Shown here one piece after another: positions 56,081 through 59,990 of a stretch of 64,000 nt of DNA. The notes under the pieces were generated by a model. That model did no database searches. It had not been told where the DNA came from and saw only the letters and a program-made list of their open reading frames with translations. The translations under genes and the position numbers were made by a program. Each line of letters starts with the position of its first letter. Position 1 is the first letter of the stretch. The stretch is from Shigella phage pSs-1: sequence record KM501444; one strand, 5' to 3'.

Positions 56081-56093
56081 TTGAAATAAAAAA

Positions 56094-56111
56094 GGGAGCC
56101 CGAAGGCTCCC
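56094..56111 (-). terminator. UUCG hairpin terminator
   Basis: gggagcc-cgaa-ggctccc followed by UUUUUUAUUU on minus. Confidence 0.55.
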
Positions 56112-56113
56112 TA

Positions 56114-56359
56114 TCATTTATAATAACTTCGATGGTTTTCAAGATAAACCCTCTCAAGGAAGTCATCCCAAAAACACATGTCTACTTTTTGCTGCATACC
56201 GTTCTTAGAAGCTTCAATGGATGCTGCTTCTACTTGATCGACCACATCTTCCAAAAACTCTTGAACAGTTTTAAATGGATGTTTACCCAACTTCACGTCG
56301 AGAATAAATGGAGCGTCTTGAAGTGGATAGACTAAGTCACCAGTTTTGTAAATTTCCAA
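56114..56359 (-). CDS. hypothetical protein (81 aa); frame overlaps 3' end of upstream nucleotidyltransferase
   Basis: ORF track start is TTG with no clear SD; frame stays open about 29 codons upstream into the NTase gene. Confidence 0.35.
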   Translation of the reverse strand: MEIYKTGDLVYPLQDAPFILDVKLGKHPFKTVQEFLEDVVDQVEAASIEASKNGMQQKVDMCFWDDFLERVYLENHRSYYK

Positions 56360-56388
56360 TAGTTGGAGTCCACCACGGCAAGCATGAC

Positions 56389-57126
56389 TCAGAGCTTTCC
56401 AGTCAATGCCCTCATTCGCTTCAGCCTTACGAGCACGTCGCCGTATTCAGCATCAAGTTTATTCAAAGATTGCTTAAGCTCGATAAGAGAAAGCGTTGTT
56501 TGATATTTACGACCCAACACAGTGTAGAACGTTTGTGGGCCTGTTTTCTCATGATTATGGAATACCCATTCGCAGAACTCGTTCTCTGGAAGACGATGCT
56601 TAATATCTTCAACTTTAGTTCGACGCTGCTTAATGGAACCGTCTTCTTGGTAATCAACCCATTGCTCAGGGATTTGATTAACTACTTTCAATATATCACG
56701 TAATGCGGCCAAACGAGAACCTTTAACACCGTATTTAGAAGCTTGCTTGCGAACATATCCTAAGTAGGATTTCATGTTGGTCGTATAAAAACGAGAACGG
56801 TTGTCTTGAATAAACTTCCATACATCAGGCAAATCAGATTTAACTACTAGTTCCGGTGGAGTGTGGAGCATATCCAATGCTACAGTTTCACCATCTGCTG
56901 CTAATTTAAAGAAATACTTAAGACTGTATAGTTCATGGTCAATATCATCTTTAGTGTTTTTAGATGATGTGTTGTTAGTGTTTTTACTCATATGCTCTTT
57001 AACATTTCCAATAAGAATATCGCGAGCAGGAGGAACAAAGATTTCTTTAAAATCTACATCAGATTCTGGAGTAGAAGTTCCATAAAGATGACTACCAAAA
57101 TAGCTTTTCATTACTGTTTTCATCAT
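56389..57126 (-). CDS. pol-beta-superfamily nucleotidyltransferase (245 aa)
   Basis: N-terminal GSHLYGTSTPESDVDF fits the G[SG]-x(9-13)-DxD NTase signature. Confidence 0.55.
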   Translation of the reverse strand: MMKTVMKSYFGSHLYGTSTPESDVDFKEIFVPPARDILIGNVKEHMSKNTNNTSSKNTKDDIDHELYSLKYFFKLAADGETVALDMLHTPPELVVKSDLPDVWKFIQDNRSRFYTTNMKSYLGYVRKQASKYGVKGSRLAALRDILKVVNQIPEQWVDYQEDGSIKQRRTKVEDIKHRLPENEFCEWVFHNHEKTGPQTFYTVLGRKYQTTLSLIELKQSLNKLDAEYGDVLVRLKRMRALTGKL

Positions 57127-57596
57127 TCAGCCTTATATTCAATAACAGGACATACTTTAGCTTTACGCGCTTTTAAAAATTCGACGATAATAGATTTCTT
57201 GGGTTGAATAGGAGGTAAACCTTTATACGCCCTATCAATATTTTCTACATGTAAAGCATAATCCTTTTTCCATTTATAATCTTTATATTTTTCATGCAGT
57301 TGTGCAGGAATAACAAATGAACCAATAATAAGTAAAACAAGCAAAATGGCAAGTATAAATGCTGATGGAATAAGAGTCCATAAACTACCAAAAATAAGCC
57401 ATTTCTGCATGATTTCTGCACAGATAATAGTTAGACCTGCGAGTATAGTACATCCGAAAAAAGAAACGAAAAATGTAGGGATAACAATAGACCAAAAGTA
57501 TGCACACAGTGTCTTAGGTCGTTTCCATTCATCATTAAACAGTTTGAATAATTTATAGTGCCAAGAGTTTTCATTAATAATCATAATTATAATCAT
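57123..57596 (-). CDS. membrane protein (157 aa)
   Basis: ORF track; hydrophobic helices. Confidence 0.45.
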   Translation of the reverse strand: MIIIMIINENSWHYKLFKLFNDEWKRPKTLCAYFWSIVIPTFFVSFFGCTILAGLTIICAEIMQKWLIFGSLWTLIPSAFILAILLVLLIIGSFVIPAQLHEKYKDYKWKKDYALHVENIDRAYKGLPPIQPKKSIIVEFLKARKAKVCPVIEYKAE

Positions 57597-58114
57597 CCTT
57601 TCATTGAAGGTGTAACAGTTGTTAAATACTTAATCATAGCTTCAGCTTCTGATTTTGATAATGAAATTTCTCCATTATTTTGACGAATAGAAATAAAATC
57701 CGGATGACGGTCACCACCAGCTTTTAAAACACACATATAAGTATCAGTTTCATCTTCAATATTTGAAATGATTGAAGCAGTTCCGCATGAATGTGGTTTT
57801 TGATAAATCAATGCAGCTTTTCTTCCACCGTTTGACTGTTCATAAACTTTTAACACATCAAACAAATCGCTTCTTTTATCAATAGCTAAGATGTTGTTTT
57901 CATCTTCAATGTTAAATCCTTCGGATACTTCATAAAGTGTCACCCATAAATCACCTATATCGATAGTAGCATTTCCTTTTCCACGACTTTCAAGAATGTG
58001 ACAAATTTTCTTAATTTCATCATAACTCATTTTAATAATATCATCTCCTTGACTAAGGAAGATGTCATTTTTAAATTCAACGCGAATTAAACCACTTCCA
58101 CTTGAAATAAACAT
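57593..58114 (-). CDS. hypothetical protein (173 aa), paralog of next ORF
   Basis: C-terminus ISLSKSEAEAMIKYLTTVTPSM vs VTFTKDEAIALKTYLDSVIPTM; shared GFNIE motif. Confidence 0.5.
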   Translation of the reverse strand: MFISSGSGLIRVEFKNDIFLSQGDDIIKMSYDEIKKICHILESRGKGNATIDIGDLWVTLYEVSEGFNIEDENNILAIDKRSDLFDVLKVYEQSNGGRKAALIYQKPHSCGTASIISNIEDETDTYMCVLKAGGDRHPDFISIRQNNGEISLSKSEAEAMIKYLTTVTPSMKG

Positions 58115-58120
58115 ATTTCC

Positions 58121-58675
58121 TCACTTTGAAATCATAGTTGGAATGACAGAATCAAGATAAGTCTTTAGCGCAATAGCTTCGTCTTTGGTAAATGTGACAA
58201 TATGCGATCGAAAATCATCAATTTGACGAATAGTTAAGACATCTCCATCTTCATAACATTTTGATACGTTTAAAACAGTTTCATCATTCTGATTGCAAGC
58301 GTTAGTAATAATAGCATTGCAATTTTTAAACCATTTTAAACTATGTTTTCTTTCATTAGAATAATAAAAATATTTAATCTTATCTATAAAACTGTCCCAA
58401 TGAATAACTGATAAACACATTGACTCGCTTTCAATATTAAATCCTGGGCATGAAGAATAAAAATGAATTTTATGCTCATCATTAATGCTTACAATTTTAT
58501 CAGTATAAGGATTTTCAATTTGGGTTAAATGAATGATTTCACTAGGCGTAAAATACATCATATCATCTTCTTGCGTCAAACGATACATATTATTTACTTT
58601 TTCTATAGCTAATTCACCAAAAAGTGAACTAACTTCTAGTACTAATCGTTTCATATTAATCCTTTTTATTGGCAT
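58121..58675 (-). CDS. hypothetical protein (184 aa), paralog of preceding ORF
   Basis: see preceding. Confidence 0.5.
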   Translation of the reverse strand: MPIKRINMKRLVLEVSSLFGELAIEKVNNMYRLTQEDDMMYFTPSEIIHLTQIENPYTDKIVSINDEHKIHFYSSCPGFNIESESMCLSVIHWDSFIDKIKYFYYSNERKHSLKWFKNCNAIITNACNQNDETVLNVSKCYEDGDVLTIRQIDDFRSHIVTFTKDEAIALKTYLDSVIPTMISK

Positions 58676-58934
58676 GAATTTGTTTTAAAATTTTAGAGTA
58701 TTCCTTTGTATCAGATTTACGTACAATCGATACACTATAAGGCATACTATCGGTGTCTTTTATAAAACGTTCCAAATGACACTCTAACAAAATTTCTGGG
58801 TTATAAATCGTGTACATCAAATTACCTGTTGCTCCACGATATTGACAGATTTCTACTGATTGAGCGTCATTCCACAATTTTGTTAAGACTAAATCACCTA
58901 CTTCTAATTTCGGAAAGCTCACATTATTCACCAA
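58656..58934 (-). CDS. hypothetical protein (about 88-92 aa)
   Basis: ORF track start is TTG; GTG 12 nt downstream with GGTGA SD is a likelier start. Confidence 0.4.
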   Translation of the reverse strand: MVNNVSFPKLEVGDLVLTKLWNDAQSVEICQYRGATGNLMYTIYNPEILLECHLERFIKDTDSMPYSVSIVRKSDTKEYSKILKQIHANKKD

Positions 58935-59114
58935 TTAAAGTTTCAATTAATTCTCTTAACTTAAAAGCTTGTTCACTTGTCATTACATACTCCTTTGAAT
59001 AATATCAATAATATTGTTCACCAGATTATAAGTAAACATTGGGTAATTATATTGAATCATCACATACACAACAAACAAAACTTTCATTCTCTTCTCCTTG
59101 GCAGTTGACAAGAT

Positions 59115-59145
59115 TACTATATCATAACCTTGCCAACTTGTAAAC
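59115..59145 (-). promoter_or_regulatory. T4-type early promoter
   Basis: tactatatcat...gtaaac; embedded in inverted repeat cttggca/tgccaa. Confidence 0.5.
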
Positions 59146-59310
59146 CATTAAATGACGTTTTCAATAAAATTCTGAAGCTTTGTGTGAGCATCAACCATAA
59201 TTTTCATTTCTTCCTTTGCGAAAGCTGTACCTCTTTCTCGAGCAGAATACTCATAGTCAGAAACTGCATTAGCATATTCTTCAATTAGCTTCATTAAAAA
59301 CATCTGCTTT

Positions 59311-59505
59311 TCAGTTTTCATTATTCCACCTAATCATTTCAAGATATTGAACTAACTTAGCTTTGGATTTATCCAAATCCTTTTTAGCTGCTTCTATACC
59401 ATCGTATGAGTATCCTTCACAATGCTCAACTGCTAATTGATATGAATCTATTTCAACATCACGTGCTAATTTAATAATTTTTTCAAACTGTTCACGTGTT
59501 AGCAT
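59311..59505 (-). CDS. hypothetical protein (64 aa)
   Basis: ORF track. Confidence 0.4.
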   Translation of the reverse strand: MLTREQFEKIIKLARDVEIDSYQLAVEHCEGYSYDGIEAAKKDLDKSKAKLVQYLEMIRWNNEN

Positions 59506-59507
59506 AC

Positions 59508-59711
59508 TTAAACTCTCGTATTATGATCGATAATTTCATCAAGAAACATATCTAAAGCTTCTACAGCATTATCAACTTTAGCTTCAAATTTTTCAATACC
59601 TTTATTTGCAATGCCTGCCGAAAACCAAGCAAAGTCACTAAGTTCCTCATCTGCTTTGCGAATTAAAGCTACCAATTCTTTAATTTTATCTGCTTGTTCA
59701 ATTCTAGTCAT
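59508..59711 (-). CDS. hypothetical protein (67 aa)
   Basis: ATG 59709-59711; track start is GTG further upstream. Confidence 0.4.
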   Translation of the reverse strand: MTRIEQADKIKELVALIRKADEELSDFAWFSAGIANKGIEKFEAKVDNAVEALDMFLDEIIDHNTRV

Positions 59712-59957: not shown

Positions 59958-59990
59958 CGGTAAAATGAAAAAAGTCTCCCGAAGGAGACT
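59944..59990 (-). repeat. terminator-plus-promoter module repeat (second copy at 20752-20800)
   Basis: tggaaagtaaaccggtaaaatgaaaaag + UUCG hairpin shared between both loci. Confidence 0.55.
59973..59990 (-). terminator. UUCG hairpin terminator
   Basis: agtctcc-cgaa-ggagact followed by U-run on minus. Confidence 0.5.

Follow-up and report, generated by a model that had tools for sequence, protein, structure and literature searches.

The two adjacent small open reading frames (ORFs) described here appear to encode functional, anciently diverged paralogs of the phage T4 early protein MobD.1 (Y05I), and this explanation, taken as a whole, is the one favored on balance. Each would be a small, acidic protein made from three sheet-plus-helix repeats of the PC4-like (Pur-alpha/Whirly) kind. 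The window, that is, the whole stretch of 64,000 nucleotides of Shigella phage pSs-1 that was analyzed (sequence record KM501444), belongs to a Tequatrovirus (T4-like, T-even) genome, with 96-99% identity to hundreds of Tequatrovirus genomes by megablast and a G+C content of about 35%. Its minus-strand genes run in the order nrdC.10, nrdC.11, ..., rI.-1, rI, rI.1, tk. The pair is located between the small rI/mobD.x genes and nrdC.11, a position that is collinear with T4, RB27, slur14 and others. It is part of a gene block whose order appears to be conserved: a Tudor-like protein, one or two y05I proteins, a two-helix membrane protein and the NrdC.11 nucleotidyltransferase. The members of this block in the window are:

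58656..58934, minus strand: upstream neighbor, a 92-aa “Phage_tudor” protein (PF24144, E=1.8e-39), found upstream in most related loci, with none in T4

58121..58675, minus strand: MobD.1 (Y05I) ortholog, ORF of 184 aa with 84% protein identity to T4 MobD.1 (PF24449 and PF24448)

57593..58114, minus strand: MobD.1 paralog of 173 aa (BLASTP E=6e-12 against the neighboring ORF; PF24449 and PF24448), with none in T4

57123..57596, minus strand: membrane protein of 157 aa with two hydrophobic segments (PHROG 944)

56114..57126, minus strand: nrdC.11 nucleotidyltransferase (RlaP match), last gene of the transcription unit, interrupted by the loss of 1 nt near 56438

The ORFs of 173 and 184 aa listed in the first-pass annotation of this DNA are indeed present on the minus strand, at 57593-58114 and 58121-58675, in the same orientation and separated by a gap of 6 bases. 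The two sequence blocks from which a paralogous relationship had been claimed both occur in both proteins: an internal block that reads GFNIEDE in one and GFNIESE in the other, and a C-terminal helix, SKSEAEAMIKYLTTVTPSM in the 173-aa paralog and TKDEAIALKTYLDSVIPTM in MobD.1, that shares the pattern K-x-E-A...Y-L...V-x-P-[ST]-M. The paralogy holds up when the whole proteins are aligned, as BLASTP matches them end to end over ~175 residues (47.8 bits, E=6e-12, 29% identity, 50% positives), and both match the same two Pfam models. For PF24449 (T4_y05I_N; gathering cut-off 24.9 bits), the match is 111.9 bits (E=2.4e-32) with the 173-aa protein and 132.2 bits (E=1.1e-38) with the 184-aa protein, and for PF24448 (T4_y05I_C; gathering cut-off 27 bits), 82.5 bits (E=2.8e-23) and 74.1 bits (E=1.1e-20), respectively. 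PHROG 1502 is also matched by both, and the relationship could thus already be read from these resources. Pfam and PHROGs both list the family, whose genes are present without a name in hundreds of GenBank records. A scan of the 418 ORFs of the window with the family HMM found no third copy.

An identity of only 29% in a genome with ~35% G+C could suggest that the similarity is a chance or compositional effect of AT-richness. However, the E-value of 6e-12 was obtained under composition-adjusted scoring, the same two curated Pfam models are matched by both proteins at E-values of 1e-20 to 1e-38, and the structure models of the two proteins have the same predicted fold. The chance reading is refuted and retains virtually no probability.

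The 184-aa ORF is the counterpart of T4 MobD.1 (Y05I_BPT4, P39240), with which it shares its genomic position and 84% identity, and its DNA is collinear with T4 57258-57814 at 90.7% identity. The likely start of the protein is the ATG at 58654, which yields 177 aa (MKRLVLEV...) rather than 184 aa. This start is probable because the ATG comes after an AAGGA motif and the stop of the preceding gene and because most database homologs start there. The 173-aa ORF shares both Pfam domains with T4 MobD.1 but has only ~27% identity to it and belongs to a separate clade; T4 itself is single-copy. T4 MobD.1 is classed as early at both the RNA and the protein level, and its protein has been detected by mass spectrometry (PMC9697503, supplement). 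Loss of the nrdC.11-mobD.3 block is not lethal in T4, where MobD.1 is dispensable (PMC9825161). On the favored explanation, both proteins of the pair would likewise be early products that the phage can do without in the laboratory. In the searchable literature, mobD.1 is named by a review merely as a flank of mobD, and nothing relevant was found for y05I.

Homologs of these proteins carry misleading names in RefSeq and GenBank, including [quoted passage not shown], “putative SSB protein” and “prohead core scaffold protein” (e.g., NC_028448, OP168898 and the T2 UniRef entry). In such records, “helicase loader” and “thioredoxin” are labels on genes beside the y05I homologs. The identity as a molybdenum-cofactor enzyme suggested by the “MobD” name can be discarded, as a Pfam scan of both proteins matches the y05I models only; the “molybdopterin MobD” name is a carry-over from the T4 label mobD.1, in which “mob” means mobile endonuclease. 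More generally, the SSB, prohead scaffold and MobD names given to y05I proteins appear to be carried-over labels that find no support in the Pfam scan. In its present status, this work is an annotation improvement rather than a discovery, which also flags these names and provides a structural and evolutionary frame for two of the many unnamed early genes of T-even phages. The ancient split of the two types, the hybrid and endonuclease-replaced variants of the locus, the fixed linkage to a membrane protein and the three-repeat, Pur-alpha-like reading of the models, all described below, are new in that they were not found in the searchable literature.

The pair had previously been explained by a local duplication followed by divergence. 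The proteins are true paralogs and they have diverged, but a recent local duplication does not fit the data. In a neighbor-joining tree with 200 bootstraps, in which the 173-aa type was sampled from the window, RB27, P0029 and P0047, this type forms a clade of its own (100% bootstrap) that falls outside the clade, also with 100% bootstrap, of all MobD.1 orthologs from Tequatrovirus, Mosigvirus, Dhakavirus and Gaprivervirus. The two copies in the window are not each other’s closest relatives in this tree. Either the split is therefore at least as old as the four genera or one of the copies has evolved at a much higher rate. Purifying selection acts on both copies (dN/dS 0.07-0.35), which indicates that neither is decaying.

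A recent tandem duplication in place, in which one copy is redundant and drifting to loss, would be compatible with the adjacent genes, their common orientation and 6-base spacing, with the absence of the 173-aa copy from T4 and ~47 related mobD-carrying records and with the existence of a single hybrid gene. This reading is largely refuted by the tree and the dN/dS values, and it also conflicts with the retention of the 173-aa type in 432 records and with its presence as the only copy, at the single-copy position, in the metagenomic T4-like phage L007; it is considered very improbable. The ancient split is preferred. Since L007 has the 173-aa type alone, the pair may have come about by recombinational stacking of two old alleles as plausibly as by duplication in place.

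Copy-number variation across related phages, which had been proposed as a check on the pair, was found: the number of copies is two or one, and in some cases a single in-frame hybrid is present. A tblastn search against 50,697 phage records gave the following counts:

173-aa type, identity of at least 80%: 432 records

T4-type MobD.1, identity of at least 80%: 412 records

More divergent MobD.1, identity below 60%: 313 records

mobD endonuclease, identity of at least 95%: 47 records

The two-copy arrangement is present in most Tequatrovirus genomes, for example the window, slur14 and RB27, and a single MobD.1-type gene is found in Mosigvirus, Dhakavirus and Gaprivervirus. The T4 arrangement consists of MobD.1 and mobD. 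The segment corresponding to window 57128-58095, with the 173-aa gene and the gene for the 157-aa membrane protein, has been exchanged in T4 for the HNH homing endonuclease gene mobD, and T4 lacks the 173-aa paralog because mobD occupies its place. Among the matches listed, mobD adjoins nrdC.11, with the full locus examined in T4 only. T4 is also missing the 92-aa Phage_tudor gene (window 58653-58979, minus strand) and has ~10 bases in its stead. Together with the mobD replacement, this means that T4 differs by two separate indels around mobD.1.

The in-frame hybrid gene combines the N-terminal two thirds of MobD.1 with the C-terminus of the 173-aa type and was found on six contigs. It encodes a protein of 179 aa (P0019, at 4001-4540 of L008), and the three contigs that were fetched (Logan contigs L008-L010) represent three sequencing runs. 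The crossover coincides with a short sequence shared by the two genes:

58276..58285, minus strand: GATGAAACTG, 10 bases coding for D-E-T, in the MobD.1 gene, the crossover point of the hybrid

57745..57754, minus strand: second in-frame copy of GATGAAACTG, inside the 173-aa gene

The junction at this sequence shows recombination between the paralog copies, the hybrid having arisen by deletion between the two copies of GATGAAACTG. Another case of exchange is RB27 (L003), whose MobD.1 allele is only 50% identical to that of the window, making MobD.1 a mosaic. Relative to window 58230-58970, RB27 has a divergent cassette in which a different small gene replaces the Tudor-like gene. The identity to the window returns to ~100% within the last 90 bases of mobD.1, which points to a recombination breakpoint inside the gene. 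Remodeling of the locus has thus recurred, through a homing endonuclease, exchange of alleles and crossover between the paralogs.

A protein of 210 aa from an ENA contig (P0048) starts with the first ~50 residues of MobD.1 and continues with the C-terminal part of NrdC.11. Either the paralog, the membrane gene and the greater part of nrdC.11 have been deleted there, or the join is an assembly artefact.

AlphaFold2 models were built on an alignment of 27 sequences. In the monomer models, the N-terminal ~100 residues have a pLDDT of about 90 and the C-terminal ~75 residues one of 50-70. The predicted secondary structure falls into three units, each with several strands followed by a helix. Both proteins are predicted to have a Pur-alpha/Whirly-like fold with a strands-helix-linker-strands-helix topology, in which the first two sheet-plus-helix repeats would come together as one intramolecular Pur-alpha-like domain:

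58352..58654, minus strand: MobD.1 N-terminal domain, repeats 1-2, predicted to be intramolecular and Pur-alpha-like

58124..58351, minus strand: C-terminal domain of MobD.1, repeat 3, in which strands precede the conserved helix TKDEAIALKTYLDSVIPTM (PF24448; pLDDT 50-70)

57824..58114, minus strand: N-terminal domain of the 173-aa paralog, repeats 1-2

57596..57823, minus strand: C-terminal domain of the 173-aa paralog, repeat 3, with the helix SKSEAEAMIKYLTTVTPSM (PF24448, E=2.8e-23)

The repeats are also partly visible in the profiles. An hhalign comparison of repeat 1 with repeat 3 gave a weak but specific match (E=2.3e-4) that aligns LSQGDDIIKMSYDEIKKI against IRQNNGEISLSKSEAEAM and pairs two invariant glutamines; repeat 1 against 2 and repeat 2 against 3 were not significant (E about 0.1). 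The best structural matches to the models were Pur-alpha, MRP1/2 and Whirly, and SsgA and type VII secretion chaperones were also among the matches. This fold probably lies behind the Pfam label “y05I-like putative transcription factor”. At the sequence level, the Pfam PUR repeat (PurA) was not matched at E<=1 by either protein, and PDB profile searches returned no PUR chains at E<=10. The PDB sequence matches that did appear in searches with full-length and C-domain profiles, CsoS1D (E=0.2) and NMD3 (E=1.4), are due to chance. A fold search of BFVD gave significant E-values only for uncharacterised members of the family. As there is no sequence-level link to the PUR, Whirly or PC4 families or to solved structures, a shared fold is claimed here, and family membership is not.

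The closest parallel is Pur-alpha, the best structural match to both models (PDB 3k44/5fgp for repeats I-II and 5fgo/8chw for repeat III). Like the models of the phage proteins, Pur-alpha has three sheet-plus-helix repeats, of which the first two pair intramolecularly. Its third repeat pairs between molecules, as that of the phage proteins would. It differs in that it has no detectable sequence similarity to the phage proteins, which are acidic, without the basic and aromatic binding residues, much shorter and devoid of flanking low-complexity regions. Whirly/MRP proteins and the phage early protein ChmC, which has three-strand repeats, have the two-repeat fold in common with the y05I proteins (PMC11077065), but they are basic, tetrameric, shown RNA/DNA binders, whereas the y05I proteins are acidic.

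Repeat 3, which holds the conserved C-terminal motif, would be an unpaired half-domain. It would have to pair with another repeat 3 to give homodimers, and in genomes with both genes, heterodimers would probably form as well. According to a 2020 review of PC4-like domains, a single sheet-plus-helix repeat is not likely to fold on its own, and Pur-alpha is the sole protein reported to have both an intramolecular (I-II) and an intermolecular (III) PC4-like domain; it dimerises via repeat III, and Pur-alpha/Pur-beta heterodimers could form likewise (PMC7549692). In the y05I proteins, repeat 3 is poorly predicted in the monomers and bears the most conserved motif, and the number of repeats is odd. 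Other T4-like phages have stand-alone homologs of the C-terminal domain (67-87 aa), frequently two in tandem (SEA1, L015, L018) or one next to a single-repeat DUF7189 protein (SmallBear, Q7622). The odd number of repeats, the low pLDDT of the C-terminal domain and these stand-alone versions all fit pairing of half-domains into homo- or heterodimers, and dimerization via repeat 3 is suggested by the models and by analogy with Pur-alpha.

The DUF7189 proteins are 63-70 aa long and are found near stand-alone y05I_C genes in T4-like phages of Klebsiella and Enterobacter (L012:2814-3005 and L021:1722-1934). They match repeat 1 of the 173-aa paralog weakly (E=7.8e-5), and the sequences hint that the three-repeat protein may have arisen by fusion of single-repeat genes. 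In size (63-87 aa) and in their strands-then-helix layout, the stand-alone y05I_C and DUF7189 proteins resemble the PC4 homolog of phage T5, YdbC of L. lactis and Bpur of Borrelia, and from this single-repeat layout, they would be expected to be dimers. They differ from those single-repeat PC4-like proteins in having no sequence similarity to them, in being acidic and in having a family-specific C-terminal tail (VIPTM). An exhaustive search of 1.84 billion representative proteins gave 28 matches only. Among these, P0063, a repetitive secreted protein of 1572 aa that was matched in nine stretches, was rejected as a low-complexity artefact.

The function of the proteins had been given as unknown, but the range is narrowed by the Pfam entry, by early expression in T4 and by the predicted Pur-alpha/Whirly-like fold. 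One possibility is that they are classical PC4-like dimers that bind phage or host ssDNA or RNA early, with a role in transcription, RNA handling or replication. The best structural matches (Pur-alpha, MRP1/2 and Whirly) are all nucleic-acid binders, as are most characterised proteins of this fold, which bind single-stranded nucleic acid, and the phage Whirly-fold protein ChmC binds RNA (PMC11077065). The Tudor-like protein and the RlaP-type nucleotidyltransferase among the neighbors, the few conserved basic residues in the linker and C-terminal domain (K99, K106, R144 and K154) and the “putative transcription factor” of the Pfam name point the same way. However, the y05I family is acidic throughout, with pI values of 4.2-5.5 and net charges of -6 to -13 on the N-terminal domains, and the best-conserved residues of the N-terminal domain are Q, D and E (Q22, D24/D25, E13, E33 and E72), neither basic nor aromatic. 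Among the structural matches are also SsgA and the type VII secretion chaperones, which have this fold without being nucleic-acid binders. This role as classical nucleic-acid-binding dimers is therefore held to be rather unlikely.

The acidity of the family and the constant presence of a membrane-protein neighbor make plain nucleic-acid binding uncertain. Instead, the y05I proteins might bind a basic protein partner, either the membrane protein, through its positively charged cytoplasmic tail, or a nucleic-acid-binding protein of the host, a tentative suggestion that could well prove wrong. In view of the acidity, the conservation of Q, D and E and the matches to SsgA and type VII chaperones, a protein partner is rated somewhat above binding of ssDNA or RNA.

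The membrane protein has hydrophobic segments at about residues 30-60 and 65-100, and in the window the start of its gene overlaps the stop of the 173-aa gene (ATGA). In each of the 16 Tevenvirinae loci tested, a homolog comes directly after the one or two genes of the y05I family; the loci include members of the Tequatro-, Mosig-, Dhaka-, Gapriver-, Gelderland- and Kanagawaviruses, one Klebsiella phage and eight metagenomic or IMG/VR contigs. The C-terminal tail is basic in the window and in two of three other homologs checked (net +7, +8 and +2); that of the SEA1 homolog is not (net -1). T4 has kept MobD.1 and lost the membrane protein, which argues against a strict dependence of MobD.1 on it. 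Conversely, in Aeromonas phage Asswx_1 (L020, 229 kb), no y05I gene was detectable upstream of the membrane-protein homolog (HMM E=4.8e-36). As this phage belongs to a distant subfamily of the Straboviridae, the membrane protein appears to be more widespread than its y05I partner.

A bolder proposal is that y05I is a viral counterpart of Pur-alpha. The two paralogs would form a heterodimer, held at the inner membrane through the co-translated two-helix protein, and this heterodimer would serve as an acidic mimic of nucleic acid, or as an adaptor, directed against a DNA/RNA-binding or defence protein of the host. The family would have been fused from single-repeat genes, DUF7189 and y05I_C, which other T4-like phages still have as separate genes. 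This combination is improbable. No PADLOC defence model was matched at E<=0.1 by the two paralogs, by the membrane protein or by the Tudor-like protein. If the dimerization and the membrane link were true, the family would offer a compact bacterial-virus model of PUR-type half-domain pairing and a candidate host-takeover or counter-defence module.

Scans for expression signals, by consensus in the case of the promoter-like sites, found the following:

59116..59144, minus strand: promoter-like site, TTTACA, 17-nt spacer and TATAGT, with an upstream TG (consensus scan only)

59008-59036, minus strand: second promoter-like site (consensus scan only)

59973-59990, minus strand: terminator-like hairpin and T-run after rI.-1 (scan)

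56093..56112, minus strand: terminator-like hairpin and T-run after nrdC.11 (scan)

The promoter-like sites (59144 and 59036) and the hairpins bracket the gene block. Both hairpins are perfect and GC-rich, are called terminator-like on both strands by the scan and probably delimit early transcription units. The late promoter motif TATAAATA was not found within the gene block. At the end of the block, nrdC.11 is split into ORFs of 245 and 81 aa, compared with 336 aa in T4. The sequence at this point is GCG-ACG in the window, GCGAACG in T4 and GTGAACG in RB27, and the split reflects a sequencing error or a genuine pseudogene.

Just upstream of the pair is a larger tandem array: three consecutive small genes of 57, 64 and 67 aa at 59148-59711 (minus strand), all of which match Pfam DUF7438. 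Related loci have up to seven copies, including the homologs of tk.1-tk.3.
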